Below the pieces are notes generated by a model that had not been told where the DNA came from, did no database searches, and worked only from the letters and a program-made list of their open reading frames with translations. The translations under genes were made by a program, and so were the position numbers. From NCBI GenBank assembly GCA_051294905.1, contig CM119371.1, positions 23,934,001 to 23,998,000 on the forward strand: 64,000 bases of DNA, written 5' to 3'. Each line of letters opens with the position of its first letter. Position 1 is the stretch's first letter. The DNA comes from Botryllus schlosseri. Taxonomy: Eukaryota. This document shows, in pieces, positions 4,451-30,406 of the stretch.

Positions 4451-4506
4451 AGGTTAATTTAAAGTAATAATTAATTATTATTAATTAATTTCTTAATACA
4501 ACCAAA

Positions 4507-6835: not shown

Positions 6836-7046
6836 TATTATTAATGAGGAGTTTTAAGTGCGCGTGTCGCCGTTTCCGGCCTTGTGCACCACGGGCAAAA
6901 TATGTTATCAAGGATCAAATTTTCGTGCTCTGGGACATAGGTTTATAATAAATTTCAAACTATATATACAAGCTACAAGTGGATAATATGCTTCTCACTC
7001 TAAACTTGCCTTGGTAATCATTCCATTTGTGGAGTCGACAGGGAGT

Positions 7047-9052: not shown

Positions 9053-9115
9053 GTCACAGGTGTCGAATTTCCGGACGGAAGTATCCTTTACAAGCGTGCG
9101 TCAATGCGGACCTAA
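9053..9115 (+). CDS. Candidate terminal coding exon (VTGVEFPDGSILYKRASMRT*)
   Basis: Strong polypyrimidine/acceptor ttgttttcatgtatttctacAG; phase 0, compatible with exon 273-443; AATAAA downstream. Speculative. Confidence 0.25.
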   Translation, partial: VTGVEFPDGSILYKRASMRT

Positions 9116-9823
9116 ATTCGCAACGTTATTGATAGCAAGAATAAATGAGGACGTAGTACAAATATTCCATCGAAACGACAACGCCAAATTAAACACATTG
9201 GACGGAATTTCCGAACTCAACATACTTTCAAAATTCGCATAACGAAATGCTGCGAAGTAATTTCGAAAATCAAGAACGGCAAATGTATTGCTGTTTGCAG
9301 CAGTTTATGTTAACCTTCAACATTTCGTAAATCTCTAATAAAGATGATCATCAATTTTAATTCCTAAAAAATCACTTCAACGGTACTCAAACTTTCCTTC
9401 CACGTCCTTATTTGCTCGTGGGGAACGTTTATGAATCAACATTGAGAGAATGTATTTGTGAGTTTGGTGCCATATGAGGTGAAGACTAATTACAATCATT
9501 ACCCCTTTACAACGTTAGAAATGCATAGTCAATCAATTACTTTACACGTGTAGAATGTATGTGAGGCATGACCAATGCTGATTTTATTAATGGAAAATTA
9601 CGAAATTGTGGGTCAGTAATACATGACGTGCCACGAAAATGACGTCGAAAACACTACAAACTAGATTATTGTGGAATCGACTCATCATCGACAAATAACT
9701 GTTTGTTTGTATTCTAATGAATGCATGATAATCTAGTAATTGTAGTGTTGTAATGTTTATTAATTTCAGTTTCCGGGGTTAATTTGAAATTTTCTCATAG
9801 AATCCGTTTGATTTTTATAGTAG

Positions 9824-10036
9824 CAGTGGTTCTCAAATTGGGGGTTGTGAAGGCATCTGAAGGGGGGCGCGAAGATGCGGTCAACTGCAATTTCATAGTT
9901 ATTGCTCCGTGTATTGTCCTAATTTCATAATTGAAAATTCTCCCATCAACATTTACAACCTTCCATGCCATCAACCTATACGTAGCGATCGCAAGCATTA
10001 AGGTTGACGTGTCTAAAAAGAATTTGAGAACCACCG
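9824..10036. mobile_element. Short hAT-type MITE (same family as 30586-30914)
   Basis: CAGTGGTTCTCAAA ... TTTGAGAACCACCG ends and shared internal sequence. TSD not conserved. Confidence 0.6.
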
Positions 10037-13000
10037 CCCTAAATTGTGATTAACATGTCTGACATCGATTCATGATCTCTTTACGTATCGTAAATTACTA
10101 AAGAAAGATGTTTATAATCACGTTATAGTGTCACTGTCGACGCTTAAGTATTCAGAGATTGATTGTCTGTTTGTGTGAGTTTTATGACTATGTCGGGCTA
10201 CTATTTTATTCGCTTTTAAGATCGCTATCTCAATATTGTAGTTCATATGAATGTGAATTTGGACCGATGCAGCTGTCGTCGCCACGGATAATAATATTAT
10301 ATAATACCGGAAGAGAATCATGTGAGTTGTATGCAGTATTACATAACGAAATGCTTAAATTATTTATTTGATGAACGATAAATACTAAAAATGGAACAAA
10401 AATATCTTTATGTGTTTACGTAGTGAGTTTACGAATCTATTTAGATGTTATCCAGTATAATCGTTTTATTAATCAGTGTGTTTTGATCAATAAATCTTTA
10501 ATCACCAACGCATTGACTTTTAAAAGTGGATGTAATAAATTGGGGTTAGGCCTACAACTATAAGGTTTAAATTTACTTTTCCCACATTATAGCATATTGC
10601 GACCCGGAATTACAGTTATACCAGGGAAAAGGAGCAGTCACAATGTGGATGTGCCGGGCTTTCTTTCAAGCATTTTAAACAGTTAAATGCAGGAGAATGT
10701 AGCGTCCTTGTCTCACACCATATATTACAGGAGTGTCAGAACTGCAGCCAGCTAAATTCACGCGGCTCATTGAGATTTTGATTACGACTATTGCGTTTGA
10801 CTACATTGTCGAGAAGTTTACCGTAATCGTAAAACAATCAATTTCATCGCGTTTTAACTTTCTGCATTTTAACTAATACAATAGATCTATATTCATTTAC
10901 ATTGTGAAGCATCACATATCTCAGTTTTTGTTTTGAGCTGCAAATAAACATAATCTACCTATGCTTGATATTTGGCGATGCAACAAACTCGACGGAATAA
11001 TCGCGATTCAGGGGCAATTTTCTTTTTCTAAACACATTCGTTCCCTGGTACTGGTAAATTACCGACTTCATCACATCATGTGGCGGGCTTTTAAGCTCGT
11101 GGGGTTCTTGGGGAGTTATCGAAGCTGCTTATTGTGGCGAAATATAACGCTAGGTACGCAGGCGTCCCGATGGTTTAATTCCGCGTCGGAGGTTCATATG
11201 GGCTCCTGTTCACCCGTGTCGACGTACGATCCAAGAAAAAAAAAAGATTAAGAATCTACTATAAATAGAAACGATTTGTAAAGAGTTGGAAAGAACATTA
11301 TTATTTACATCGAAAAACTGTGGCTTCGGGCACTAGGCCGAAATGGGTACCGGATTAAGAAACCGCAACTGGTCGCTTAAGCATCCTTCTATCTATCTCT
11401 CCGTTGCATTGCATTGTGTCTTATGTATCGCATTTTAACTTGTATCTGCCTTGATCGGATGGACAGATTTAACTCCAAGCTGCATATGATGATGCTGTTC
11501 TTATTTTACCGACTTATATTCGCCAGCGCGCGATATCAGAACGAAAGGCAATGCTTTTCACTAAAATGGGCGGTCGGAGGATTTTTATCGCAACTACTAT
11601 AAACAGGCTAGAATACCCGTTGTAGAATTGATTACACTAGCGCACCAGATTCACCTGGTAGGCTTTGCAAATCGCAGGTTGGCATAATTTCAGGCAGTGA
11701 CGATATCTACGACGTTTTCAGATGGATTAACGATGCGAGTAATATAATTTATAAAATTGCGATGCACTAATCGGCACGGGCAGGTCCGTGCGTATTTTTG
11801 AACTTACCCACTTCCCATATACTTATTCATCCACGCCGTCGGGCATTTTTGACGGTGTTTCGACCCATACCTCATACCTAGGGTTGCATTTAAAACAAAA
11901 ATCAATTTAAAACAAACATGTTTAAAGCAAGGCCCCAATTCAAAATATGTTTTTTTATTGTTTTTCGTGTATTTTTTAGTCAATATTCAATTGTGACGTC
12001 CTCTAGTGGATTGACTTTGACAATTGAAAATATAGGGTAAAAATAGCTCCTTTGATGAAATATATGTACTATTGCTGTTTTGCAGACTATTTTGAGGGTT
12101 CAAACCATCCCATATTGATATACGTCGGCTATATCGGGTGGTGATTGTCCGTAGGCTCATACAACATGTTTTTTGTAAAGTATTTCCACAATTAAGGCAT
12201 ACTTTTACAACTTAAAAAAAAAACGCAACTTTTTTTGAAAGCTTTTTTTAAAACATTGTTTAACGAAAGGATTATAATTAATAGGGGCACTGTTATCTTC
12301 ATAATCTAACGTTCGCGGTTTATGAAGAAGATAGCAGTGGAACATTCAATTACTCCTTTATCTGATCATGGCCGAGTAATTGAAGGAACAATATCATTGG
12401 AGAATCGAGGATTAAAATGAGGAGGGACTTACTAAATACGAAAATTTGTTTACAAATCCATGATGCATTGTACCCGAGTTGTTGAATTCTTTAATTTTAA
12501 TCATTTCGATCATTCATAATACAATCCAAATTTCAATCATTCAATTTCTAGTGGCGAGTTTACTCGCGAAGAATGTGTGATACATTGGGATTCGTCAATA
12601 ATGTCAGTGCTTCTATCGTGCAGTAAATCGATGTATATACAATACATATATACTAACTACCTAAGAGATTTACAATAGTTTTAACTTTACAAAATTGTAT
12701 TTTATCACAATTATCGCGCCCTAGTGATGCTACTGGAGTGGTTCTCAACCTTTTTGACATCGCGGCGCCCTTCGGAAATGAAGAATAGTTCGCGGCACAC
12801 CATAGCAGCGGTTCTGAATTTTATTGACTTACGGCACCTGTAAACTACCAGAATACTTAGTAACGCCGACTAATGGGACCACCTCTGCAGTCAATCCAAA
12901 ATGTTTCTGTTCTTCCTTTTTTTAAATAAACTGCTCCATTTTAATAATTCTAAAGCTAAACATTTGTACGTAAAGCGTCCCTCATAAAGCTTACTAAGCC

Positions 13001-14061
13001 GTGATAGAAAGTCGTCGTTTTCCTCGGGCCAGAATATCGTTCCTTCGTGAATACAACTAACAGGGCGTATTCAGACGTAAGTAAAAGGGGTCATTTTGAT
13101 ATACGACTTCACAGAAACACGGGCTGCCCTCAGACACGACTTCATAGGATTTGCTTGACAATAAATCTGCCCACTGCCGGATTGGGTCGAAGAGGTCAAG
13201 CACGATCGCCGCTAACGAATACGGAGGCGTAGAGACGTAGCGCAATGCATTTTCACGCAGATCGTGTAGCACGCGTGAGGATAGCAATACCTCAATAGTT
13301 CTACTGGCAGCCACCTGCAGTTCAATTATACTTTCAACAAACCAAGGGTACAACCTCGGCGGCCAAGCGAATAGGTTTGTTAACGGATATAATTTGATCA
13401 ACCTTACTTCTCAATACTCATACTCGTTGAAAGTATCACAACGCTGTGCTACATTTTATCGGAAATGCCGGCACGATACCTAACAATCACAATGTGAATT
13501 GCCATGTTTGAAATTCGAATTTGGAAACGCGAACGCCAATAGACACTTACGTGACCTTTGACACGAACCAATCAGGTTGCAGCAGGATGTAAACGAACAT
13601 CAAGCCCGGGCAAACTTACTATGATTTCTTATGGAAAAAGGTTGTAAAATGAAATTTTTTAGCAAAATGACATTGAATTGGGGAAAGCTGGCTTTGGTGA
13701 ATGGTAATAACGTAGATATAGTACGTGTTCTAACCTGGAGCACACATCAATGGTGGCAAGCACGCGTCAGCATAGAATGTACAAATGAATCGATTTCTGA
13801 CAACTTTTCGGATGAAGCTACTATTTTTGAATTATCCTTAGTCGTATACAAACTATAGGATTTTCGTACCGAATAGCATGTATTAGAGGAATCTTGAGAC
13901 AGGATAGGTGGGGTATTCATTATGTGTGCTCGGTGTTGTATGCGTTCTATTTATTGAATCGTATATGGTATAGTCTGTATCATTAACTAGCAAATTACTG
14001 TTACACTGGACACTTGTCCGCATATTCTATAATCAACATATAAATATAATATATGTTAGGC

Positions 14062-15260
14062 CAGAGGTGGGCAATTATTTTCCTCCGCGGGCCAAATGAG
14101 AAGTAGAAAAAACGTTGGCGGGCCGAGTGAAAATTTTTAATTATATTCGCGCGCGTATTGTAATTTTATTTCTAAATTATATTGTTAGTAAATGTTGCTC
14201 AGTGAATATGGAAACAATGTTAAACCCCTGTCCTCGTTCTTCAATTAAGATTCTAAAACAAGCTTTTTTAGGCACGCCTTCCTTTATGATAGTGGCAAAT
14301 TTCGCGTCCACCTTATCATAATATAACAAAATATTTAAAAGTCTAACGAGAATGCTACCAATCCCAACGGATATTTTGATGGCATGGAAGGTTTTGGCTG
14401 TTGATGGCATAATTCTGAAATATCAAATTCGGGGAACACACAGAGCAAAAACGAGATGATGGTGGTAAATCGCGTGGAGCGCGAAAAATTTTATCATTAA
14501 TCTTCGGCTTTACGCCACCCTTCTGATGCTTAAACGCCCCCCCCCCCCCGAGAACCACTGCACTGAAATGTGTATGCAATAGTACGAAGCTTGTTTTCTT
14601 GGTCGCTACCTTCCGAGCAGTGTGCAGTTTAAGTAGCCCGACTTTACTTAATATCCTTAATCTCGGCGACATGCTCGGCAAAAACTAAAATGACAGGTTC
14701 CCCCTGACTCCAGTATACAAATAATTAGTGCTCTAACCTAAACCTAATCCTTCTTGGAATCTCAGTTTACGGCTTTTATTTATTGCATGCTCGGTAATCC
14801 TTTATGGGTGATAGATATGACGAGTCGTATCGTAATCTCGAGCACTGATTGACTTGTTTTAGGAATCAGGGATTTGGCAACGTATCACGTAACAATTTGA
14901 AACACATGCCGTATAATGTCACTGTCATTGTCAATGTCACAGTGACAATGGCAACGAAGGTTTTAACTAAACTAAATGGAAAGAGTGATTTTTGTGACTT
15001 CAATTGCTACTCATGATTTGCCACATTGCCTTTATTTTGAATCTGGATTACGCATGCGAGGTAAGTGGGCAGCTTAATCGTGGCATATTAATGAACAGGC
15101 TCCAAAGTAAACGAATTTCCTGTTCATTTAAGACAGACTATGGTTTTAGTCATGTAAAAAGCAAGTTGTATGTTTTGAATTCGAAGCAACCTTTCGCGGG
15201 CCGCACAAAATGGCTTCGCGGGCCGCATTTGGCCCGCGGACCGCACTTTGCCCAGGTCTG
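14062..15260. mobile_element. hAT-type MITE
   Basis: CAGAGGTGGGCAA ... TTGCCCAGGTCTG ends, perfect 8-bp TSD TGTTAGGC, subterminal GCGGGCC motifs. Confidence 0.85.
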
Positions 15261-15336
15261 TGTTAGGCAATATGATCCGTTCCCGGCTGAAATCGTCATT
15301 TTTGTTCTGGCTCATGTATTGAATCAATCATGATAA

Positions 15337-15540
15337 ATGCCGCATAAACACTGTACTAATAGCCTGTGTAACTTGGAGATTGCTACCCAGACAGTTCCTG
15401 GTGTGCGCTTCTACCTTTCCCAGAGCCGATAACATGTACGGAAGAATGTAAAATCTGGATAAAGGCATGTGGACTTAGTTATAGTCATCTGAATTCTCAT
15501 TTTATTAATAAAATGACGTATGTATTATTGTACCAAAAAT
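15337..15540 (+). pseudogene. THAP-like zinc-finger remnant of a DNA transposon
   Basis: Frameshifted translation MPHKHCTNSLCN..YPD..PGVRF.FPEPITCTEECKIWIKACG...INKMTYV matches the THAP C..C..FP..W..C/H pattern. Confidence 0.55.
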
Positions 15541-15559
15541 GTTGAATCATCACATCATT

Positions 15560-15915
15560 TAGATAGAAAAATTCTGCGTTTCAAAATTTCAAAATGAGTC
15601 CAATCTGAAATGCAGTCACACTGCTTTCGTTGTGGATGCCATATTCGACTTGGTGTGTGTCTCATATTACTCCGCTCCAGTGTTTGTTGCTTGAAGGTGT
15701 GTAATGGATTGAAATTGTTGAAAGCAATATATTCAATAATGAGATAGATAGTTGATGACATTGGTATACCTACATGTATATATCTGTCCTAAAGAAATAG
15801 AATACACTAGGCCCGATTTTGACATAAATCTCCTGACTGGACATCTTCCGTTGAACGCGGTATCTAAACCACCTTGGCGTGTACGACATATTTCCTTCAT
15901 AACATCGGCCGACAA
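15560..15915 (-). pseudogene. Possible YqaJ/lambda-exonuclease-like remnant (ISL2EU/Kolobok accessory ORF)
   Basis: Fragments KSGLVYS and RKQCDCISDWTHFEILKRRIF resemble YqaJ motifs (GLV.. and CDF..WT...RI). Heavily decayed. Confidence 0.35.
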
Positions 15916-16149
15916 CTATATAAAGTTCGATCTCTGTGTGACTGCTGGAGCGTGAAACCCCTTTGGAAATTTCAATAAATTGCAGCTCCATTATGGCGGC
16001 GTTCTGAAGAAAATGGCTGCGGCCAAATATGTTTTTCGTTTTGCCCTTCAATTTGAGATCACGTCATTTTTAGAGTGCAGTGCCCCTTTAAGAAAAAAAA
16101 AACGCCGTGCTCATTGCGATTACATTCACAATATCAATCTGTCTATATC

Positions 16150-16490
16150 ACATGCAACTTTGAAAGGATTGATGGATTGTGGTGCACTAACGTTTGTGCG
16201 AGAACTATTCACATGGAGCTATGGTGCACCACGAGATGCTATCATGGCAGAAAAGGGATTCGCTTCGCCATTGAGTCTGAAATCAAGAAATTAAATCAAG
16301 ATTTTAATATTCCAGCACATGATTTGGCACAGCGTCAAATGTCGGGGCCAAACTGTTCCACAACAAGAAAGATGGCGAGGCATCGTATTCATATTAAACA
16401 ACTGATCGGTAGAATCAAGGAGAATAAAATTTTGTCCGGTGTCATACTTAGCAGCATTGTGTGTCAACTAACCAAATATAGACTAACTAG
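16150..16490 (+). pseudogene. ISL2EU/Harbinger-type DDE transposase C-terminal remnant
   Basis: TLKGL..GALTFVRELF, DAIMAEKGF, NIP...RQMS..TRKMARHRIHIKQLIGRIKENKILSG are characteristic DDE_Tnp_4 motifs, frameshifted. Confidence 0.75.
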
Positions 16491-16582
16491 CTTACTCTAA
16501 TTGAAGATTAAAAATTAAAAATGAATGACGCAACATATTCGGCTATCGTGCAAATTCAGTTCCATTGTGAATATCGTAATGC

Positions 16583-17056
16583 CTAATAGCATGCTTCGTA
16601 AAGTTGTGGTCCTGGCATTTGTTTCCAACTGAAGCGTTCAGCGAAATTCTCAATGACTTCCTCTTTGTCCGTGCGACTGTTGGGATACCATTGTATGAGG
16701 GAATCCATCATATCTCTCCAAGTGTCTCGTTCGTTGGCATTGTAGACGCGAGATAGATTAAGAGCTTGTTCTATTCTGCCCGCCTTTTCGAGTTTACTCC
16801 GTAGAGCTTGATAGAATAATTTATCTCTTGGTTCATGGCCACTGCCCGTGTTGGTGTTATTGATTTGTTTTAATATCCACGTAACTAGTGGTTTGTCTTC
16901 AGGATCGTCTAGGCGCTGTACGAGTTCTTTGAATTTATCCGTATCTGGCAACAGGTGTTGACGTCTGCCTGGTGTTAGGCATTTCAGCTGATCTCTGGTT
17001 AGCTCGTAAGATTCTTCTTCACCGAGTATTGTAAAACCAATCCAATGACGTTTACG
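16583..17056 (-). pseudogene. Putative gag/capsid N-terminal fragment of the retrovirus-like element
   Basis: Frame is open from about 17056 to 16583 with no ATG at its 5' end. The pattern LRSKL..A..TWRDMMDSLIQWYP..F..WKQMPG..LYE resembles retrotransposon gag (TW..L...Y ... Q..GE...Y). Confidence 0.45.
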
Positions 17057-17092
17057 TCACAATTACAGCACAATTACTCAACAATTAATACA

Positions 17093-17590
17093 CAATTACA
17101 TCAACAATACACAGGCTTCAGCATAAGGTATGTTCCAACCGGGTTGCATGCTTATCACTGCATATCATAGGCCCTTTACTTGACAATTACATCAATAATA
17201 TACAGAATTCAGCAAAAGGTATGTTCCAACCGGGTCGCATGCTTATTACTGCATATCATAGACTCTTTACTTCACAATTACATCAATAATATACGGCATT
17301 AAGCAAAAGGTATGTTCCAACCGGGTTCCATGCTCATTACCGCATATCATAGGCACTTTACTTTGCAACTACGGTACAATTACTTCAACAATTACATCAA
17401 TAATATACGGTGTTCAGCAAAAGGTATTTTCCAACCGGGTTACATGCTTATTACCATATATCATAGACACTTTATATCACAATCATAACATGACTACTCC
17501 AACAATATACAATATACATACTTCAGCATAAGGTGTATTCCAACCGGGTCGCATGCTTACTAATTACTGCACATTGTAGGCACATTACTT
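17093..17590. repeat. Tandem repeat, about 91-bp unit, about 5 copies
   Basis: CAATTACATCAA...TTCAGCAAAAGGTATGTTCCAACCGGGT.GCATGCTTA.. starts at 17093, 17184 and 17275; two more diverged copies follow. Confidence 0.9.
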
Positions 17591-17953
17591 ATGATTGTGT
17601 CAGAAGCAAATCGCTCTTCATTTTCACGTTTACATTCATGAATTCATTCTATACAAAGGCACATGCTACACTGGTATCAATAACCCCATTTATGTTTCGG
17701 ATACATCAAGGCAAGTATTTCCTGTTCAGTATCGTAATACATTATCATGTTATCGTGTCAAATACACACATTGTACAGTTACAATACTGACAAATTAACC
17801 GTCACAATTTTCAATTCATATCCCAAAATATTAATTCACGTTTCATTAACTCATTATACATCACAAATGTTAATTCATGTCTCATCAATGTCTGCACACA
17901 TGCTATTGTGCTGCCTCGACTCTCCAGAATGTTCGCCGGCGTTTATTTAATAA

Positions 17954-18041
17954 TTATTCACAAATTCTCGCCTTGAATTACTTTATTCACAAATTCTCGC
18001 CATGAATTACTTTATTCACAAATTCTCGCCATGAATTACTT
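17954..18041. repeat. Tandem repeat, 29 bp x 3
   Basis: TTATTCACAAATTCTCGCCATGAATTACT repeated three times (one substitution). Confidence 0.95.
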
Positions 18042-18548
18042 TTTGTCAGTATTTTTCGAACAACTTTATATTCCTTTGACCTTTTCCCCCCTTCTTAATC
18101 AAACATACATAAATATCATTTTCATTTCTGCCAAAGCGCTCTCACTACCCCCGCGCAGCATATTGATTGTTCCTAACAATTCCAGAACGTCTTCCATTTC
18201 AGTCTCAACATTTGATTACAAATATAACAGTCGTATGTAATTAGTACAAAATTCCTTATTCTTCTTTCCGAATCATGTTTGATTTTCTTAATGCCATCCA
18301 AATTATCCATTAATTTGTTTAGTACGGCAAAATTTTCCAACAAGAACCAAAATTGTTCTTTTTCTTCGATATCTTATCCATTTTTCTCTAATTTTATCTC
18401 ACCCTACTTCGCTTAGGCATATCGTCTGGGAAGCGACACAACACAGTCAACGTGTAAGCAGCTCAATCGTAATCGATCGAATAAGATTGTTACACAATAA
18501 ATTACCGACAAATGCATCAATTGACATATACCACAAAACAGCCTAAAC

Positions 18549-19674
18549 TAGGGTTACCATATTTTTGGTTCACAAATTCCGGACGCTCTTCAGCGCCCAC
18601 TAGCGGATTTCAAAATGAGGTGTGAGCGAAATGTCGATCAATATGACGTTACACCAGCATCGCTTTGTCTATCGACTGGAGGTGGTCGCGATCCGGTTCA
18701 GGAGTATGTGGTTGTGTATTGTATGTTGTAACCTGGGCCGAAGCAACATATTTTCAGCCCCATCCCGCCCAAATAAACACTGATCTTGGGCCCATCATAG
18801 GGTATTCGATGCAACTTCTGGGGTTTTACCATATGCATCTGGTGTTAAATGATTTGAATGAATTGTGTCAATAATATTGGTTCTTCCATATATTACTGTA
18901 TAATTCTAATCCTCTCTCCACCGACATAATCAGAGTCAGCGGTAGAATTGAGCTGATGTAGGATGATGACTTCGAAAATGCAAGGGGCGTGATTGTACAT
19001 CGTTAAGTCATGTTCATGTCACGTCAATAAGATTATTTATCAGCCTAATGCGGGTGTGCACTTCACCACTGAGCTACATAAACACCGCACATCCGGTGGT
19101 TTCCAACCTTTTATGGTCGCGAATCCATTTCCAATTTGAAAATGTGCCGTGGCCCAGCTCAAAATTTGATGAGCTGATTACTAATTAAAGGTCGGCACAT
19201 TTGCCCAGACTTACTCATTGCCTATTTGGAAGCTAATTACGTTCAACATCTTCGCGAACCCCAGAATAAAGGCAAACTACCATCGTTTTTGAATAAAGCA
19301 TCCAAACGACCTAAAACGACGACTCTATGAATACCGTTATCTTGTAATCGCGATTACAATTAGACTTCTTTTTGTAAATGAATGTTATTTTTATTTATTT
19401 CTTGATCGCAGTTTTTGCGAGAGCGATAGTCCCATATTAAAACCAATATATATGATACTAAATCGCGCCTAGCGCGAAGAAAAATTTCATGTAGCAAAAA
19501 TCTACGCAAAAATAGTCTTGTTTAGGTTGATTTACGAAGAAAAAAAAGATTGAGCTTACTTCAAGCCTTCGAAATTCCGGACATTTAGGCATATTTTAGA
19601 AATTCCTCCCGGACGCAGTTTTAACAGTGAAATTCCGGACATGTCCGGGAAATTCCGGACGTATGGCAACCCTA
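18549..19674. mobile_element. hAT (Tip100-like) MITE inserted in the non-coding region of the retro-element
   Basis: TAGGGTTACCATA ... TATGGCAACCCTA TIRs, perfect TSD GCCTAAAC, AAATTCCGGAC subterminal repeats. Same family as 53375-54497. Confidence 0.92.
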
Positions 19675-20249
19675 GCCTAAACCCTAATCGCCGCGATGAC
19701 CTGTTACTCTGACCCCTCATTTGCTGACTTAGACCTAGGAGGAATAAGGCTGACAGATTGATCCAAACATGGCCATAGGCCAGTCTTAATCAACGTGTCC
19801 TAAGGTGTGTCAAGTTCAAGCTTTTCTCAAGTCGTCCCATCACAGCATTCAACCCTTCATCCTTGTCTGGTTTATGTTGTCTTGACGACAACATCACCAG
19901 TCAAAATGTCGGGATACGCCGTTTAAAGACACGGAGTCCAACTCTCGCCATTCTCACCTTATTCCCCACTTCGAATTTTATCCAAACAACCAAATGTTGT
20001 TACTAATCAATTGGAGCTATCAATAGTTATTGCCCATGCATTATGCACAACCGGTTTCCAATTGAGCCCCCTTCCAGCAGGCAAAACCTTCTCCGTTGGC
20101 AATGAGATGTTCCTACCTAGTTAGTCCTATCTATATAGACCCCCCAATCCCCACAATTTATTACATATATACACTTCTCGAGCAGGTCTGTCGATGGGAA
20201 TGTCGACCGGAGGTTCATAGCAGCGTTTGGCGTGCACTAATCACCCTAA

Positions 20250-21524
20250 AAGCCGGGAAAACTAATTGAACATATTAGTTTAAATCTTTGTCTTTCGGCT
20301 TTTGATCCGTGTGCTGTTGCAGTCTATAGTCTGCTGTAATATGCAGTTTTTGTCTTCCTCGTGGCACAAGTCGCAGTGCGTTGCGGCTAAAACACAGACT
20401 CGTGTTCTCTTCAAGGCTGCTCGCAGCTCTCTTTTCGTCTTTTTACCAATGGATAGCATTTCCAGTCGTTAGGATTCTTCCGTCAGATTGCAAAGTGCCT
20501 TTCGGGATTTTCTTCCTTCCATCATCTCTTTACTAGCAAGCATAACTCCTTTGGGCAATTCTTGCTTCGTTTCTCCCTTCAATACCTTTTGTTCATTGTG
20601 TCTCATCATTCGCGTTTTTTTTGAAGAGTTGTTGGAGATTAGGCTCTATCATATGCATTAGTATTTCGCACATCCTGACATCCTGCCAATGTTCAGGATC
20701 ATTTCGTATCTTCATACGCTTGTATCTTTCGAACGCCGCCTTCGTTTCTTTGGTTATTTTGATCGACGAATTAGACTTTTCTCGAAGTATTCGATTGTAT
20801 CTTTTTCGAGCTCTCTGCGATAATTGCGATTTGTCCACAGTTTCGATAGCCTGTTCTTCTTCTGCACTTGTCGACGGCCGACTATTTACTTGTCTCGCAG
20901 GCGTTACGACTCCCTTTGGTGATGCGTTACTTGTCAAAATCCATTTCATGACTGATGGTGACTCGTTCTTTCCAACTGCTCTGGCCATACCTCTTGTCAG
21001 TACCAGATTCTGTTACCGAATATGTAGCATGTGCTATTGTATCATCAGGCGATATCTGTTCAGACACCTTCTTCCTGGAATATCCATAGATCTCATGTAC
21101 CATGGCATGTGAAACACGACAAAATCGGCGCTAATATCCTTCCTTGAATACCAATGAATATCATGTAGCGTTGTTCCAGATTTCATGTCAATTACCATGT
21201 CACACAAATTTGTTTTACATGAGTCGTCGTTATAAATTCCATTTTAAATATTGTATGTTACAATCTGTTTTACATCCCACGATTTTATTTCTCACATTCG
21301 ATATCGTCGGCCCACTTCACACCCTTTGTTGGTTTGGCTTGATATGCCGGCAGTGCTATCGCCGCCATTTTAACGGCTTCGGGTAGTATCTTTTTCCCTT
21401 CGTGAATCAAATTGCTATTCTTGATTGACCACATACGTTCTTTTTTATTACTTCCCACCTCAATGACGGATGCAATCTCTGTTTGTTTTTGTGGCACTGC
21501 GGGTGGCATTGTAATAGGATACAT
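20250..21524 (-). pseudogene. Decayed accessory ORF(s) downstream of env
   Basis: ORFs 21285-21524 and 20593-20988 are linked by protein-like sequence broken by in-frame stops and frameshifts, and it continues to about 20250. No family recognised. Confidence 0.45.
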
Positions 21525-24148
21525 ATCACTATTAGCACTGCTATACCAATGGCTGCTGGAATCAATAATGGCTTGAACAGTGATCCGAATACGCTTCCGA
21601 ATATACCTCCGACTGTTTTACCAACGCCACTCACTATCTTCTCGCCTTCATTAATGACTGTCTCCAACCCAGTTCCGACACCTTTAGCAGTTTTGACAAC
21701 TACATTTCCGAGACCTTTAGCTATTTTACCTGACGCGTCAAGCACCCGTTCAATTCCCGATCTTCGACCATACCACGTTTTTTCTTCATGTTTTATAGTC
21801 ATACTTGCATTCTTGATCTTTTTCAGTTCTCGGTGTATAGCACTATTCTCTATCTTTCTTATCGTCAGATTGCTATTGGTATCGTTGACAAATGATTCTA
21901 GCGGCTTTTCGAATTCTTCAATGTTGACATTTTCCACAGGTATTTTCATTCTTCTTGCAAGTGTTTTCAGTTGTATTATACCCTCTATAATATTCAATTC
22001 AAATTTGACATTACTGGGTACATGTATGTTCACTCGCAGCAATTCCCTGCTAACCATATCATCAGCCGCTAGATGAACTCGCGCCATTCTTTCCAGCATG
22101 TGTATTTCCGAAACTAAGTTCTTCAAAGTAATGGAACCATCTCCATTTCCCATCTGCACTAAGGTCGAAAGAGTTTTGTCATCTTTGTCTGCTAGCCGAG
22201 CTGTTTCAAATAACTTTACTTGCAAACTGGTTAACATCTTCATTAGTTCAGGCGTCATTTTGTGCATATGCCGAAGATCTACCGCAGTTCTTGCTAGATT
22301 CTTTGCATCATTACGAAACCTTTCTCTAATTTCTTTTTCCAGGCTTGCCACATGTGCATTGACGGCCGATTCTATTTTAGTGGAACCCCATTGTCCTGTA
22401 GTTGCCAATCGTATAATTCTGGAACCCACCGCTAGCACTTGCCTCTTTGACATTGTCTGATTGTTAGCAGAGTCCGATTTTCCTGTCATTGTCTTAAAAC
22501 AAAATGGCTGAACAGGATATTTTTCTTGCACATTCACATAGTAACGTGTGTCATTCCAGTACCTAAGTTTTGTAATTAGAGGAACAAAAGGATGGTCGCA
22601 CTTATATTGTCGTGCTTTCTTGGTGTTTTCCGTTTGTAACAGTATTAAATCCTCTTCCAAAACTCCGTCATAACCTCCGGATCTTGGTGGCCAATCGGTT
22701 TCGTAGTCCGACCAATATGTATCCATAATCGATGCATTGCCTTCATTAATTCCTCTTCTCGGTAGTCCCAAGCGACATAAAGGAGTTCCAGTTAAGGTCT
22801 TGTTAGGTATTCCATCTATTACTTTCAACCGTAGTCGATTATTCCAGACTCTCTCGTGGTCTCCCGTGTAAACAACCGACCCCCATCTATGTAGCATGTG
22901 AAACGTAGCGAACGGTTTAAACCTTTTACCCGTCTTTACTGCCCATGTCTTATAGTATTGTCGTGTTTCTGTCAATGTACTATTGATTTCGTCCTTTTCT
23001 ATACTGGATATATTCGGGTTTGCCCAGATATTGTTAACGTATTCTTCCATCAAAGCCAACTTTATCCTTGCCAAATCCTCAAATATAAATTCAGCACGGG
23101 TCCGTTGTATGTGTATTGCCGCACTTCCTGTAATGCATTTCATTTCTTCATGCATCCTTTTAGGGCTCGTTTTATTAAATCGCTTATCTGTTTTTCCCCA
23201 GGTCATGACTAGATACGGATCGGCCTTTAGCGTCTCGGGTCGTATTCGAGACGATTCTTTGCCATAGAACGAACAATCTATAGTCCATTCTGTCCTTATT
23301 TTCAGCGCATGGTGAGTCCATTTGTCGAAAAATCCTTGCCACAAAGGTAGTTTACTGTCATAGGAATAATTGATTGAATATGACCAACTTATTCGGCTGA
23401 GTTGCCACCTAATTCTCCTCTCTTTAAAGTGCACTAGCCTCTTGGTAAAGGCTTCTTTCTTAGTCGTACAATTAGCATGTACTTCGGCAAATTCTTGGAA
23501 TAGCAACGAAATTTGTATGCGATATGCCGTGAAGAATTCCACCAAATTGAGGACTGTAATATCTTCTTCATTCCATGACCTCACATTATTCGATTCCGGA
23601 TCCCAATTCCAATCATACCATTGGTACGGTTTATTGTTCCGAACATAAATCACGCTCCGATCAAATACTAGAGGATGCAATTCAGGCAATATCTCAGATC
23701 TTTTCCGGTATGTTGTCGAGTTGTTTGTTTTACATTCGGAGATATACTCGTCATGGGACGAGAATATTGTGGTATTAGGGAAGTATTTTTCCACATAATT
23801 CACAGATCTTGATCTTACTATTATTCCATATGTACTAGTTGTAAAATCCGAAAGAGTGTCATCCTTTTCGTCACATTCCGATGTCATGTTGTACTTGAGT
23901 CCCTCCCATCCGGCTATAGGTACCCATTCATGAGTAGCGTTATTGCCGTGTAACGATTCATCATAGACTTCAGTCTGTAGCCATTGTACCTTGTCTTCTA
24001 TGCCAACAATTGTAGATCCGAGCCCGGGATTATAGGTTGTTTTTTCATCCGTCTGGTTCGTTTTCGATCCTTCCGCGTCCAGCAGAACGCAATAAATGAC
24101 CATGATAATCCAGCAATAGACAACAGAAGCAATGCGAACGTGGCCCAT
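21407..24148 (-). CDS. Envelope-like type I membrane glycoprotein (913 aa)
   Basis: N-terminal hydrophobic signal peptide, many N-x-S/T sites, basic sites YRKRS and SKR, a helical heptad-like region, a Gly-rich amphipathic membrane-proximal segment, TM PLLIPAAIGIAVLIVICILL and a short tail. Lies downstream of pol. Confidence 0.8.
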   Translation of the reverse strand: MGHVRIASVVYCWIIMVIYCVLLDAEGSKTNQTDEKTTYNPGLGSTIVGIEDKVQWLQTEVYDESLHGNNATHEWVPIAGWEGLKYNMTSECDEKDDTLSDFTTSTYGIIVRSRSVNYVEKYFPNTTIFSSHDEYISECKTNNSTTYRKRSEILPELHPLVFDRSVIYVRNNKPYQWYDWNWDPESNNVRSWNEEDITVLNLVEFFTAYRIQISLLFQEFAEVHANCTTKKEAFTKRLVHFKERRIRWQLSRISWSYSINYSYDSKLPLWQGFFDKWTHHALKIRTEWTIDCSFYGKESSRIRPETLKADPYLVMTWGKTDKRFNKTSPKRMHEEMKCITGSAAIHIQRTRAEFIFEDLARIKLALMEEYVNNIWANPNISSIEKDEINSTLTETRQYYKTWAVKTGKRFKPFATFHMLHRWGSVVYTGDHERVWNNRLRLKVIDGIPNKTLTGTPLCRLGLPRRGINEGNASIMDTYWSDYETDWPPRSGGYDGVLEEDLILLQTENTKKARQYKCDHPFVPLITKLRYWNDTRYYVNVQEKYPVQPFCFKTMTGKSDSANNQTMSKRQVLAVGSRIIRLATTGQWGSTKIESAVNAHVASLEKEIRERFRNDAKNLARTAVDLRHMHKMTPELMKMLTSLQVKLFETARLADKDDKTLSTLVQMGNGDGSITLKNLVSEIHMLERMARVHLAADDMVSRELLRVNIHVPSNVKFELNIIEGIIQLKTLARRMKIPVENVNIEEFEKPLESFVNDTNSNLTIRKIENSAIHRELKKIKNASMTIKHEEKTWYGRRSGIERVLDASGKIAKGLGNVVVKTAKGVGTGLETVINEGEKIVSGVGKTVGGIFGSVFGSLFKPLLIPAAIGIAVLIVICILLQCHPQCHKNKQRLHPSLRWEVIKKNVCGQSRIAI

Positions 24149-24276
24149 TCTGAGTTCACATGTGGTAAATATATTTCAAATATGTTGTTCTTTTCCACCG
24201 TACTTGTTTCAGTCACACTCGATATGTTCGCTTCCGACATGGGTATTCTAACTAGTATCTGTAAAATGGATACCAT
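23998..24276 (-). CDS. Small single-TM protein overlapping the env start (92 aa)
   Basis: ATG start, hydrophobic WATFALLLLSIAGLSWSFIAFCW followed by polybasic TRKDRKRTRRMKK. Confidence 0.4.
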   Translation of the reverse strand: MVSILQILVRIPMSEANISSVTETSTVEKNNIFEIYLPHVNSEWATFALLLLSIAGLSWSFIAFCWTRKDRKRTRRMKKQPIIPGSDLQLLA

Positions 24277-24319
24277 TGTTATTATTGTATTCAGTGCTAA
24301 ATGTCCAATTGCACAAATA

Positions 24320-25021
24320 TCAGTCTATCAATATCGTAGTCCGAACGAAAACCACATTATCATCTTTCAACTCGTTAGGTATAAAGTGTTTGCTTGCCCA
24401 TAACCAGTTTTTGCTTCCATTCCATTGCCATAGATGTAATGGCTGACATTGTTCAGTATTGTTCCAATTTTTCAGGACGTCCTTACGAGGGTACTTGGAT
24501 TTACTCTGTACATTAGGCAGTGTAACAGATATTCTGTGTCTCTTTTCCCAACCTTTAGGCGCCTTCTCACAAGTAGTGAGTACACCGAATTTGTATTTAT
24601 ATCCCTGCAGATATTTTTGTTTCATTGGCAATAACCCATTGTTCAATGCTTTACGGTATTCTCCATCAGTAAGGTAAGCATATAGCTTATCCACATTAGG
24701 ATGTATCTCATAAGATCGAAACATTCTCCAAACTTCACTCAAGCTTTCTTCAAACCCCGGCCTCTTCTTTCTCCAGTCATTTCCTTGCATTTCATTGGTT
24801 ATACTTAATTGTAGTGGATTTAGCCGTGAGTTACAGGGTAAAGGCCACACAGTTATAAGCTTCATTCGGTCCACATAATTACTTCCTGAAACGGTAGGTT
24901 TCATATTCCATCCATGTCGTATAATTCCATATTCCCTCAGTCTCAGATGCATAGCAGCATTAGCCGACCTACTAGGATAATATGGTAGATTCCTATTCAT
25001 CTGAAATAGATATACAATCAT
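24320..25021 (-). CDS. Accessory ORF (233 aa) with a possible degenerate ART/Tpt1-like C-terminal fold
   Basis: Intact ORF between pol and env. LYAYLT......NGLLPMKQKYL and NWLWASKHFIPNEL echo KptA LYHGT......GL.PM.R.YVH and NGVWL...IPP. No integrase HHCC/DDE motifs. Confidence 0.5.
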   Translation of the reverse strand: MIVYLFQMNRNLPYYPSRSANAAMHLRLREYGIIRHGWNMKPTVSGSNYVDRMKLITVWPLPCNSRLNPLQLSITNEMQGNDWRKKRPGFEESLSEVWRMFRSYEIHPNVDKLYAYLTDGEYRKALNNGLLPMKQKYLQGYKYKFGVLTTCEKAPKGWEKRHRISVTLPNVQSKSKYPRKDVLKNWNNTEQCQPLHLWQWNGSKNWLWASKHFIPNELKDDNVVFVRTTILID

Positions 25022-25478
25022 GAGGAATTATGTCCGAAGATAGTACAACTTTCGACGCGTCATTCAAGGACCATAGTGATTGCGGTTTGAGTCTTTCTAT
25101 GTCAATGCAAATGCAGACTTCTCCCTTTTGCTTCGCATCTTTCTCGTCCGTGTACAGATGTACAAAACGTCTTCCCATCTTAGCTATGCCTTCCACCATA
25201 ATAGGGGATACTCGGTTCTTTCGAGTGGCATGAAACAATGATGTTAGCCCTTCCGGGTTAATCCACTGTTGCATTTGCGGATTCTGTCCTTTAGTATGTC
25301 CTTGTTTTGCCGCAATCCCATGATCTGAGATCATTATTCTGTCCTTCTCAATCCATTCCGTCGGATTATCATAGCCATATTTCATAGCACATGCAAAAGG
25401 GTGCCAACCCCTCTTCTGTAGCATACACACTGTATGCCTGAGATGTTTAATCAATTTTCTGTTAAGCTTTTCTTTCTC
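24993..25478 (-). CDS. Tpt1/KptA-like RNA 2'-phosphotransferase domain fused to RNase H
   Basis: LIKHLRH, GW, KDRI, IAAKQGHT, LFHAT, EGIAKMGRRFVHL, CIDI and VVLSSDIIPHDCI appear in Tpt1 order. Confidence 0.8.
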   Translation of the reverse strand, partial: EKEKLNRKLIKHLRHTVCMLQKRGWHPFACAMKYGYDNPTEWIEKDRIMISDHGIAAKQGHTKGQNPQMQQWINPEGLTSLFHATRKNRVSPIMVEGIAKMGRRFVHLYTDEKDAKQKGEVCICIDIERLKPQSLWSLNDASKVVLSSDIIPHDCISISDE

Positions 25479-25559
25479 ATTTTTTGTCATTCCGCCTTTC
25501 TTGATAGCTATCCAGGCCAGTGGGTCACCTTCTTCCACTGCCGTGTTTTCAACAAACAC

Positions 25560-27218
25560 TCTTGATAGCGCATCCGCAGTGAATATTTCTGACGTAGAAA
25601 TATGAACCACGTTCCTGATATTGTAGGCGCTGATCACAGCCACCCATCTCATCATTTGCGGGTCATCTGAAGCTTGTTTGTTACCCTCAGTGGCTTTCTT
25701 CAATATTCCCATTACTCCTTTGTTGTCCGTAAGTATTGATACAGGTCTATCCAGAAGTATAGAACCCCATTTTTCGAAAGCTCGTACTACCGCCAACATT
25801 TCCTTTTTACACGCGCTGTATGAACTTTTTTCATTAGGTTTCCATTTCTTTGAGTAATAAGCCACGGGTTATATCTGTTTGTGGGGAATGGGTTCTTCGT
25901 TCTCCGTTTGGTATAGGACTGCACCCATCCCGTCCAACGCCGCATCTGTTTGTATGAAGATTGGTAGCCCCATTCGTAAATGAAAGAGCGTTTTCGGTCG
26001 TAGTAGAACATCACGCATTTTCGTGTAATTATCAAACAGCGTTCGTGTCCATTTAACAGGTACTCGCCTGCTTTGTGACGCTGGTACACATCCTGTCTGA
26101 CTATCAAAACACGCCAGTATCATCGCCATATCTTCAAAGTGCGCTGCCAAATATCTCAATGCTCCAATATATCCGCGTAGTTCGAATATATTCCTGGGCG
26201 GAGGCATTTCACGCAAGGCTCTGATCCTTTCAGGTTGTACTTTGACCGTATCTTCATCCAGCAACACGCCAAGTAGATTTATTTTCTTCTTTCCCACAAA
26301 GCATTTATTGATACTGATGGTGAGTCGAAGTTCGGCGAGTTGAGCAAACACCAGATCTAGTAATACTAGATGCTGTTCATCTGTCTTTGTTATGAGTAGA
26401 ATATCGTCAATGTATGCGAATATAGGGCATGCCTTTTCTTCCTCTTCTCCCCATCCATGGGTTTTTGCAAGCTTTCTGTATTCTCGCGTCACTGGTTCTA
26501 CCAATCCTTCATTCATCGATTGCTGGAATATTGCCACGGCATTTTTGAGGCCCATAGCTAAACGTTTCCAACGTAGTTCTCTATTTGGTACCGCAATTCC
26601 CAAATATTTGCGATATTGTTCTGGCACCTGCACGTGATAATATGCCTTGGTGAGATCTATCAGCGTTTTCTTCGTCCTTCCCGATGCTTTATGTATCAAA
26701 TCAGATATCAGAGGTGGAACTACATTTGTAGCTTTAGTATTGTTGTTGAGAGGTGCGAAATCTTGAACTACTCTCATAGGTGGATCCGGTTCACCCGTTA
26801 GCCCTTGTTCGAGGTGCCGTTTCAATGCTTCCTCTTTTTGTCTGTTGTTCTGTTTTTGAGCCACTACAAAGGGTGATGTTTTCCATTCAGAGTTACCTAC
26901 TTCAATGACGCCCAATTGTAGGTATCTGTCCAGCTCTTTTTCCAATACCCTTGTATGTACGTCATTACGCAAGGTATACGCCTTTCCTACGAACGGGTCA
27001 AGTGACTCATCTTTGAGCTCAAGCGTGAACTTGTATGGTAAACCTGAATCACGTGATAGATTTTTTTCCAGGCTGCCTATTTCGTTCTTGTATTTTTCGA
27101 AGATTGGTAACCAAATCTCAGGCCTTAGCCCTTCCCATTGATTCTCAGGGTCTTCAATATCTGGTGGTTTATAATCTTCATTTGCCAGTATAAGCGCTTC
27201 AGCAGCTGCTCTTTCCAA
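25560..27218 (-). pseudogene. Ty3/gypsy-like reverse transcriptase and RNase H (one in-frame stop at 25869-25871)
   Basis: SEWKTSPFVV, RVVQDFAPLN, IDLTKAYYH, MGLKNA, YIDDILL, KCF..INLLG; RNase H QTDA..GMGAVL, AYYS, KEMLAV, TDN, ADALSR. Confidence 0.92.
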
Positions 27219-27352
27219 GTCCTGTTTAGAGTGGATTCTTCGTCTTCTGCTAGCACGAAGTGACGGACTTCCGCTCCCCAGGCCTTGCCTGTATTCTCTT
27301 GTCTCATCTTAAATTTTGCAGGTTGCTGGGTGTTTACAAGGTGATCAGTCTC

Positions 27353-27481
27353 ATAACCCAAGCCTCTTCTGCCATTATTGCCTTCAGCTCTTACAGGTAA
27401 TTTTCTACCTTGCAGGCACTTTCCAAGGCCTTTTCCTTCTTCGTAACCCATGTCTTGACACATCTTCACAGATGCTGGGCT
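27353..27481 (-). other. G-patch domain between protease and RT
   Basis: SPASVKMCQDMGYEEGKGLGKCLQGRKLPV......RRGLGY fits the G-patch consensus. Confidence 0.88.
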
Positions 27482-27929
27482 ATATATGTATAGTGGTACT
27501 TTTTCGTCGTTTGTTTCCCCTGTCGATTCTTGTAACAGATAAGATATCGGCCTTTCAGTAACAAGTTTGCTAGATTCTGGCGGCACGCGTGGCGGCGTCT
27601 TCTCTATTTGTCCTGAACACGGCATTTCGTATGTCCGTACATCGGTTCCCTCCGAGTACGACAGACTCGTTATCGGCCTTTCAACACTTTGTGCTGAACA
27701 CGGCAATTCACATGTGGGATCGTTTGCGGACTTATCTTGGTCGCTCGTCTTCCCTGAGGCTGCAGTCCTCGTATCTTCTTCAGCACTGGTTTTCCCCCCA
27801 GGCACGGAGTGTTTTTGCGTGATTTTCGACTTCACCAACCATTGATCAAGGTCTTTCTGAGGTACGTCTACCATCATCATGGCCTTGATTAAGCTGGTTT
27901 TTCCTTCTTGCGTCTTCCATCTTACGTCG

Positions 27930-28527
27930 TCTTTTGGCAAGTAGTGTTTCAACGTATTATGTCCAATTACATTTACGGGTACTTCTTCTCCCGTTAAAAA
28001 GGGGATATTTGTTCATTTCCCATATCTATCCACATCACGTATTGAGATTTCACTTCGCCTCCTACGCCTTCAATCTCAAAGGCATGTAGTAGTTTGTCGT
28101 TCCACTCACGTGGGTATGCTCTTTCGGCTGTTTTCTGCGTAATCATATTGGGCGTCGCTCCTGTGTCTGCCAAAAATGTGGCTTTCTTGCGTACATCACG
28201 TATATACGTCATTTTATCCCAAAATAGCGATTTGAAAGTCAATTTCAGTTTCCGCGGATGAGCTACATACGATAGCCCTTCCATCCCATGCGGTTCTAGC
28301 TTATCTTCCAGCCCTACGTGTCGTACCTTATGTATTCCGTTTTGTCTTCGTACAGTAGGCAGTTGTGATTTATGTACAGTTGAAATGTCATGTCTTTTAT
28401 CAGAAATGCACTTATTATTTACAAATGATTTTTGTGCAGGTTTTGCATTCTCTGTCCGGCTTTCGTAAGCAGGAAACCCTTGCGCCGGCTCTAACGGTTT
28501 CCGATTCCTTCCCCCTGACGTCGCCAT
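27930..28527 (-). pseudogene. Retropepsin-type aspartic protease (frameshifted)
   Basis: FLADTGA active site and IEGVGG flap; the C-terminal VIG..L motif continues in another frame after 27994. Confidence 0.85.
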
Positions 28528-29035
28528 GCTGGAGCATTAGGGTTCAGACCCCCAGTCGGACTGGGTTGTGTCGGAGGACGAACTTTGGGCACAATTTCCT
28601 TTCGGTTGTATATGCGTGGTAATGGCTGGCGTCCTGCTTGCGGAAAGGTGGCGTCTCTCGGACCGTTATAAGCTAGCTCTAGCATTTTGCGTTCTTCTGC
28701 CGTAGGTACTCCCATGTCAAGGAAATATTGATTGAGCTTGTTCATGGTGGTGAGGTCTAACCCCAAGTTGTTTCCGCCTTCTAGTATTGGAGCCCAGTGT
28801 GTTCTGTTATTTTCGATTTTCGTTGCCAGTTCCTCGTCCATTGCTCTAGCTCTAGGCCCGAGTTAATATCCCACTACCTGGTCTCTGTCATTTTTCCTTA
28901 CTTTCCAAGTTTCACCGTTTCTCCATCTTATAGCCTGCATTATGCAATTGCGTGACATGTGACCAGGGCTCTGACATTCACGGCATATTACGTTCTGTGC
29001 ATCAGGTCCAGTATATAACCCCAATGGTTCAAATA
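28491..29035 (-). pseudogene. gag C-terminal fragment with CCHC zinc knuckle
   Basis: CRECQSPGHMSRNC. Same frame as ORF 28491-28841 across one TAA. Truncated at the right TIR. Confidence 0.8.
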
Positions 29036-30406
29036 TGTTAGGTAATACCAGCTCTACGCTATTACTATTCATCAGGCCAGCCATCACCAATTCAATATAA
29101 TTTTGCTAAAAACCTTCATTTTACAACCCTTTTCCATAAGAGCTGATAGTAAGCTTGCCCGGCCTTGATGTTTGTTTACATCCTTCTGCAACCCGATTGG
29201 TTCGTGTCAAAGGTCACGTAAGTGTCTATTCCAAAGGTGTTTATTTCTCGCTGGTGATTGGTGAGACAATGAGGATTAGAAAACTGGATTGTGGTACAGG
29301 CGCCGCTATGTCTGCTTTTCTCTGCGTGCGATTAATCAACGTATTGTGCTAATCTGAATTCAGCCTTCAAGGCACGCGATCTGCCCGGTAAAGCGAATCC
29401 GAAGGGGATATTGATTGCGGGCTTAATATCAATATTGATTTGTCAAATGTACAAACTGCACATCAAGCTCAATTTAGATTATTGATCATTTGCAATAGAC
29501 TAGTATTACGTTGCGCCTAACTTCAAAATTCCGAAGAAATCGCTCGCGGCACACTTGCGAGACGCAAATGGCACACCGCGGCACACCGGTTGAGAACAAC
29601 TGAATTAATGTTAATCTTTTACTATTATTATGGTAAACCTGTTTCATACATTATCCGGTCGTCGGTTGCGTTTGCCATGGGTAATATAAGGAATCTCCAT
29701 TTGAATGTGTTCACTCAAAAGCTTTATTTTCCTTTTCGCAAATGATGACAAATGACTAGGATTTCTTCTTGATGTAATTAGCTCGCCTGTATCCTATTCG
29801 TTATCAGCAGTATCCCCCTTGACGCGGTTGGTATAGATGTATTATAAATCGAATCGAATTCGAAATTTAGAACATCACATCATCTGCTCTCATGTAAAAG
29901 CTGTTGAGTGTTGACACAATAATAAAACAGACATGTATGAACTCATTTCCATTCGGACATTTGCTATTGAATTTTTTATTTGATCATAGCGATCATAGTT
30001 TATTTCAAAAACATTCCGCTAAATTTGGTATTGGAAAATAATGAACTATTACATTGGCCACAAATTGCATCAAGGTCGCCAATTGTAAACCTGGACTATA
30101 CATCCGCTACTGATAATTATATACTTTCACTACCCTTCTTATAGTTGAAAATATTGAGACTGAATTGGGCGTTGCTTCCAATGTATTCATTTGTTTCCAT
30201 CTTAGATCCAAGGAAATAACCGTATCATGCTTCAATCTTTTCCCTTTCATTACACCATAAAGACACGAATAAAGGTCGTAAAACTTGACCCATGAAGCAA
30301 TTATGAAACAGCAGATTCAATACCAACCTATGTTTGTTAATGTTAGAAATGGAAAATACTGAACTATTGCATTGACCATCAATTGTTTCGACGCAACACT
30401 CTAATC

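Follow-up and report, generated by a model that had tools for sequence, protein, structure and literature searches.

A decayed retrovirus-like element of Botryllus schlosseri with a circularly permuted gag gene and no detected integrase

In the literature cited here, the only integrase-less Ortervirales named are the non-enveloped plant caulimovirids, which are fixed in host DNA as linearised circles (PMC7660458, PMC13658181, PMC10377300). Here we describe an animal locus with some of the same properties, located in a 64,000-nucleotide stretch of the Botryllus schlosseri genome (assembly GCA_051294905.1, contig CM119371.1, positions 23,934,001 to 23,998,000 of the forward strand; the whole stretch is called the window, and all coordinates are counted from its first letter). 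A retrovirus-like element in a decayed state occupies the minus strand of positions 16586-29051; it is 11.3 kb long when a miniature inverted-repeat transposable element (MITE) is discounted, and in it gag and pol are interrupted by stops and frame changes whereas the env frame is open. Its order is gag(end)-pro-pol-env-noncoding-gag(capsid), and we give about an even chance to the explanation that it descends from a reverse-transcribing, enveloped element without integrase, of which a single circular DNA was opened within gag and passively captured by the host.

The frame that carries this argument lies at 16583-17056 and has 157 codons from stop to stop. A phmmer search with it returned six matches among 1.84 billion representative proteins (best E 6e-11), a result that is circular when taken alone because the relatives were found with the frame itself. 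Three of the six (P0039, P0043 and P0044) also match the zinc-knuckle block at the opposite end of the element, 29042-28653 (tblastn E 4e-13, 2e-14 and 6e-13), through residues 791-904, 662-802 and 520-650, respectively; the other three come from contigs of 1.1-2.3 kb and stop before the knuckle position. Capsid and downstream CCHC knuckle thus share one open reading frame (ORF) in three of the six relatives, which indicates that the gene order at our locus is circularly permuted. A profile of five Gag proteins, built with no row from the window and run against all six frames of the 64 kb, matched just three segments, 17056-16586 (profile positions 301-409), 29105-28866 (631-679) and 28862-28494 (691-755), all at the element's two ends and without overlap between them. 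On these alignments, the arrangement is the permutation of a genuine gag, split between the two ends. A preliminary description of this DNA, made from the letters alone, had proposed that the frame is the N-terminal part of gag and had allowed that it might be unrelated to gag; the knuckle-block matches exclude the latter and uphold its assignment to gag, and its place within the protein shifts to the capsid, which begins at residue 183-396 in the three long relatives.

Structure prediction, which the preliminary description had suggested as a check for a capsid fold, was run on the relative P0042 and gave best matches to retroviral-type capsids with modest scores. The model, built from seven sequences, had a predicted local distance difference test (pLDDT) score of about 80-88 over residues 1-180. 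Against 48,161 chains, the 10 best matches were retroviral, retrotransposon or Gag-derived capsids (Z 5.6-6.4), and such capsids made up 17 of the 23 rows with Z of at least 5.0, although structural Z values at this level may by themselves reflect a common helical arrangement. In BFVD, the top three rows were retroviral Gags (E 0.09-0.17), and Foldseek against the PDB had no hit with an E of 0.001 or lower. The window frame aligns to P0042 residues 2-107, the N-terminal lobe plus the first helix of the second lobe, and by this model it is predicted to be the capsid N-terminal domain with the first helix of the C-terminal domain. A PDB sequence search with the Gag alignment yielded no capsid, and the ESM Atlas returned unrelated helical repeats for the frame, with low recognition. 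No in-frame ATG precedes the capsid match within 16583-17056, and the DNA upstream of the frame is T-rich repeat DNA.

When projected on the three long Gags, the part missing between the two ends amounts to 223-263 codons (668-788 nt); nothing is present twice, and the locus holds 93.5-94.5% of a 12.0-12.1-kb unit. We compared the element with other copies in public sequencing runs, using contigs of three DNA runs (X1, X5 and X6) and raw reads of one RNA run (X24, about 6% of it read). The right end was placed at about 29051, where X1 record 7 stops exactly and the match of X6 record 22 also ends; the latter has 401 further letters past this point, which makes it likely that another copy carries more of gag beyond it. 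The element begins in mid-gag, as had been proposed, just before the CCHC knuckle and at about 29051 instead of the 29035 first suggested. No long repeat pairs the two ends, no direct words of more than 10 bases or inverted words of more than 9 bases link them, and neither a target duplication nor a terminal repeat was found at the element ends, in line with the early remark that paired long terminal repeats (LTRs) are lacking. Two candidates were rejected: a 5-bp TATTA near both ends, considered as a target duplication, has its right-hand word inside the element, and the inverted match of 17 bp found at the left end does not stand out from the other chance pairs. Both flanks are repetitive, with X1 read depths above 1,000 at 16544-16547 on the left and of 2,000-19,000 over the right-hand repeat (Table 1); the left one is presumably Harbinger-like, judging from its DDE_Tnp_4 match.

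The absence of an integrase, also proposed early, agrees with our searches. No integrase, tyrosine recombinase or Merlin-type transposase was detected in the element's long frames, in 140 of the 168 shorter frames of 14000-31500 (9 more were tested separately, and 19 short antisense frames within env or pol were left out), or in 87 of the 95 flank frames and the other 8, which were tested separately, except for the integrase of a separate Gypsy element, to which the only Pfam rve match (34103-34906) belongs. Likewise, the locus has no Merlin/IS1595 transposase, inverted ends or 8-bp duplication. The usual integrase position at the end of Pol is occupied by a Tpt1/KptA-like domain.

The only close relative by reverse transcriptase (RT) is P0001/P0038, at 33-35% identity, with the order protease-RT-RNase H-Tpt1-AP (apurinic/apyrimidinic) endonuclease and no integrase in that ORF. 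The RNase H-Tpt1 order of our element is the same, and its protease frame is 38% identical to that of P0001. The P0001/P0038 ORF, on a 361-kb contig, carries a complete AP-endonuclease (ExoIII-like) domain, a DNA-repair enzyme in the integrase position. In a quick RT tree of 41 rows (without P0007, whose sequence offers no RT stretch that could be used, without P0001, which duplicates P0038, and without any named caulimovirid row), the window RT and P0038 formed a long-stemmed pair with 100% support in the Shimodaira-Hasegawa-like approximate likelihood-ratio test (SH-aLRT), and the tree does not fix the position of this clade. Most RT matches in the protein search were Gypsy-type polyproteins. 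The nearest solved RT chains include 8r0s and 4ol8, with 8r0s at 114.5 bits versus 97 bits for Ty3, nearly tied in a second search (54 versus 52.8); 8r0s is an entry named in a paper on the cauliflower mosaic virus RT structure. Scans of viral contigs, metagenome contigs and prokaryote genomes produced no relatives with flanking DNA.

Table 1. Coordinates of the element (minus-strand gene order), its flanks and other features of the window
Feature	Position	Strand	Remarks
gag, C-terminal part	28491..29051	-	NIF-x2-LGLY motif, CCHC zinc knuckle and the block after it; stop at 28863-28865; cut at 29051; Pfam zf-CCHC E 4e-5
Protease, retropepsin-type	27994..28536	-	LADTGA; broken at its end; Pfam Asp_protease_2 E 0.0015, below cut-off
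Protease end, repeat-rich linker, G-patch domain	27125..28012	-	Pfam G-patch E 3e-13
Reverse transcriptase and RNase H start	25869..27308	-	YIDD; stop at end; Pfam RVT_1 E 4e-20
Remaining RNase H, then Tpt1/KptA-like domain	24993..25868	-	Pfam RT_RNaseH E 5e-15, PTS_2-RNA E 2e-9
Frame between pol and env	24320..25027	-	235 codons; kind unassigned
Small predicted membrane protein frame	23998..24324	-	Overlaps env start; hydrophobic stretch, then basic residues; no significant Pfam match
env-like glycoprotein	21407..24175	-	922 open codons
Two small accessory-type frames after env	20280..21012	-	139 codons; broken Cys-rich frame; A-rich coding-like composition; no family above cut-off
G-rich tract	20140..20154	-	
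Single non-coding control/leader region	17057..20139	-	About 1.95 kb without the MITE
MITE (non-autonomous DNA transposon)	18549..19674		Later insertion; 14-bp inverted ends, 8-bp target duplication
gag, predicted capsid part	16583..17056	-	Cut at about 16590
Left flank, transposon remnant (presumed Harbinger-like)	16057..16575	+	High-copy; outside element; Pfam DDE_Tnp_4 E 3e-4, below cut-off
Right flank, dispersed repeat	29053..29230		High-copy; outside element; 88% identical inverted copy at 13538-13716
Non-LTR (LINE-type) RT element	473-6853	-	Tandem duplication, spacing about 4,034 bp, 97-98% identical
Separate decayed Gypsy-type element	31990-34906	+	Protease, RT, RNase H, integrase
Large imperfect palindrome	54956-55853		Telomere-like 22-24-bp units in both arms
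NACHT NTPase frame	60626-61999	+	457 codons; likely host NLR-type gene

The non-coding region after env matched the preliminary description in layout, with the G-rich tract, the tandem repeats and the cut capsid frame all where they had been placed and, once the MITE is discounted, 1,956 nt between the tract and that frame. We found two tandem arrays, 17091-17559 (91-114-bp units) and 17954-18042 (29 bp x 3.1), and the region is T-rich, unlike the coding parts, and represented in other copies. What did not hold was the reading of the tract (GTGGGGATTGGGGGG, minus strand, 20154-20140) as a polypurine tract (PPT): it is interrupted by T, a content of at least 11 G in 15 turned up in 9.5% of cases when the bases of the non-coding stretch were shuffled 2,000 times, and it has an AATAAA (20162) ahead of it and TC in place of TG behind it. 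An equal PPT candidate is a pure run of 17 purines at 18096-18080 (7.5% of shuffles), followed by TATAAA (18070), the three 29-bp repeats and AATAAA words. When primer sites and PPTs were sought by a motif scan, the yield was four weak candidates with TGG and two purine tracts, neither of them significant. As a separate observation, five repeats of 91-114 bp at 17091-17562 (minus strand) stand directly ahead of the capsid frame. Every one of them has a short palindrome at its core, and together they could possibly form a packaging or protein-binding array; their folding was no better than that of shuffles (z -1.36), and no Rfam family came near its gathering score.

The env-like frame had no Pfam match, no homologue among 5,223 candidates and none in the PDB. 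Its ESM Atlas features, which serve as a lead only, were those of herpesvirus glycoprotein B (0.90) and mononegavirus/rhabdovirus glycoprotein G (0.89), and it is likely a class III fusogen. For the frame between pol and env (24320-25027) there was no Pfam or PDB match, a single-sequence fold was poor (pLDDT 29), and its likeness to the Tpt1-like part of P0038 was non-significant (E 0.43); a label of second Tpt1, prompted by a motif echo seen by eye, was dropped after a two-row Tpt1 profile gave no match. The small membrane-type frame at the env start (23998-24324) and the two frames after env (20280-21012) together resemble the layout of complex retroviruses.

The runs also bear on whether the locus stands alone, although read depth in them is not a copy number. 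Both X5 and X6 cover the element while being nearly devoid of depth on the unique right flank (29768-30351), which means that other copies are present in them. Divergence from the window is about 0-3% among the listed contig pieces, and a second subfamily is present at about 87-90% identity (records 3, 16, 17, 20 and 21). The join between pol and env is spanned in an independent sample by X5 record 12 (23771-24583), and each of the three DNA runs covers the leader. At position 19927, which lies 213 nt after the G-tract and is where an LTR would begin if that tract were a PPT, depths relative to the env place 21473 were 34.6/40.2 in X1, 3.9/4.7 in X5 and 394/240 in X6, that is, ratios of 0.86, 0.83 and 1.6, where at least 2 would be expected of paired or solo LTRs. 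Other copies are thus without clear LTR-like doubling, with none at all in two of the three DNA runs. Among the pieces and joints listed, no link was seen from env to the capsid frame or from flank to flank. The RNA run had almost no reads on the element, which at about 6% of the run is uninformative on expression.

These runs gave two further observations on the copies. In X6 there is almost no depth over 26264-26847 (within 25680-27431) while env and Tpt1 are deep, and most copies in that sample may be divergent or have lost RT. In X5 and X6 contigs, 72 bp at 27614-27685 are doubled, a length polymorphism of the protease/G-patch linker in other copies.

If the locus does stem from a single captured circle, the element may have worked much like a pararetrovirus. 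Transcription of a nuclear circle, starting in its single control region, would have given a terminally redundant RNA, to be reverse-transcribed in Gag particles in the manner of pararetroviruses. A unit-length DNA circle, opened inside gag, would then have been patched into a chromosome break by host break repair, making integration accidental, and either capture itself or later trimming by the flanking transposons would account for the missing 0.7-0.8 kb. MITE insertion and point damage would have come afterwards; the MITE has a second copy at 53374-54497 and very high read depth.

Several results weigh against a captured circle. The join within gag is not clean; the permuted order and the failure to find integrase or paired LTRs do agree with the preliminary description. 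Both ends adjoin high-copy repeats and show no target duplication, so they may be later cuts. No primer-binding site could be assigned and no convincing PPT was seen in the non-coding region. For the capsid, the fold scores (Z 5.6-6.4) are modest and were obtained on the model of a relative. Long Gags have 180-400 residues ahead of the capsid that lack a counterpart here, so in this lineage Gag either starts near the capsid or on a separate exon, or its start has been lost. Among the listed pieces and joints, no join of the two gag parts was found at the DNA level, and neither a circle nor an empty target site was seen. In X6, the depth over the control region is 1.4-1.6 times that of most env places; in every one of the three runs the RT/protease side has less depth than env, about half of it in X1 and X5. 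Among the complete endogenous caulimovirids of almond, 77% open near the primer site and not inside a gene (PMC13658181), and PMC11899658 and PMC10377300 describe head-to-tail arrays as common for LTR elements and caulimovirids, respectively.

This last point leads to the alternative that the preliminary description had itself raised, that two copies in head-to-tail order (either a concatemer or proviruses sharing one LTR, moved by another element's integrase) were trimmed at both ends and left this locus. Such a pair yields the same gene order; tandems with a shared internal LTR are common in plants (PMC11899658), caulimovirid arrays are frequent (PMC10377300), and both ends of our element adjoin transposons without target duplication. 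It would, however, require two independent cuts to fall no more than 0.8 kb apart on a 12-kb map without overlap. If the second end is placed at random on the upstream copy, a rough model puts it within the 0.8-kb gap in 6.6% of cases and within 0.8 kb either way in 13%, or 7-13% overall. Moreover, the control region is not doubled in X1 and X5, no TG follows the G-tract, a primer site was not found, and neither the element nor P0038 has an integrase. With a near-unit length, no overlap and no clear LTR doubling, we regard two trimmed copies as an unlikely origin, though one that keeps some weight. Quite unlikely, in our estimate, is descent from a larger integrase-less element with a Merlin transposase, by way of a recombination circle or a deletion product from which the transposase and inverted ends were gone before re-insertion, and not from the genome of a virus replicating freely: no Merlin/IS1595 transposase or terminal inverted repeat was found in the window, pol continues directly into env both here and in X5, and depth suggests few copies, not dozens.

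The permuted order might also have arisen in place, by rearrangement of a normally ordered element, or the capsid and leader might belong to a related second insertion alongside. The existence of the diverged subfamily and the transposon-dense surroundings would suit such an origin, as would the lack of a listed contig running from env through the capsid frame. Against it, strand composition is unchanged through to 16586, no junction, duplication or foreign DNA except the MITE lies between env and the capsid frame, and the leader is at env-like depth in all three DNA runs. We consider rearrangement or chimerism very improbable, and the capture of one circle is the explanation that we carry into the comparison below. 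The region as a whole is dense with transposons, and its remaining features are given at the end of Table 1.

Comparison with described systems sets the element apart from each of them. Other animal reverse-transcribing elements without integrase occur among the Hepadnaviridae, nackednaviruses and HEART elements (PMC12440569, PMC10377300); hepadnaviruses and nackednaviruses, however, have no protease (PMC12440569), whereas our element has a retropepsin and a predicted retroviral-type capsid. Troyka/Kuafuorterviruses are a deep animal Ortervirales-like lineage also present in ascidians (PMC12440569), and were rejected as the element's identity because they have LTRs and integrase and no envelope (PMC12440569, PMC11673190). 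DIRS-type elements were likewise set aside, being defined by a tyrosine recombinase and the lack of a protease (PMC12440569), while our element has a protease and no recombinase match. Metaviridae with env (errantiviruses, Ty3/Gypsy) share the order gag, protease-RT-RNase H, env on a circular map (PMC7879559). Our element differs from them in its permuted order, in an RT on a long separate stem, in an env with class III features, and in having a Tpt1-like domain after RNase H and no integrase, paired LTRs or target duplication; with neither integrase nor LTRs, it is not a metavirid.

The Caulimoviridae share an Ortervirales-type capsid, zinc knuckle, protease, RT, RNase H, the lack of an integrase and one control region with our element, and are found as linearised circles in host DNA (PMC7660458, PMC13658181, PMC10377300). 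Unlike these non-enveloped plant viruses of 7.1-9.8 kb, it has an env-like gene, a G-patch and a Tpt1-like domain, an animal host and an estimated unit of 12.0-12.1 kb, and no movement-protein family or tRNA-Met site was found in it. Its env-like gene, its size and the absence of a movement protein mean that it is not a caulimovirid. We found no such animal element described in the open-access literature, in a survey that did not extend to subscription journals, Repbase or supplements. We tentatively raise the idea, which we hold to be somewhat doubtful, that the locus is a fossil of a third pararetrovirus lineage, an enveloped, reverse-transcribing circular-DNA virus of invertebrates of about 12 kb, in which the capsid would be of retroviral type, the fusogen would belong to class III, and a Tpt1-like enzyme would replace integrase. 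If true, this would be an undescribed kind of animal virus with no need to integrate, and a retrovirus-like cycle could persist in animals without a provirus; as an enveloped animal counterpart of the caulimovirids, it would represent an independent loss of integrase.

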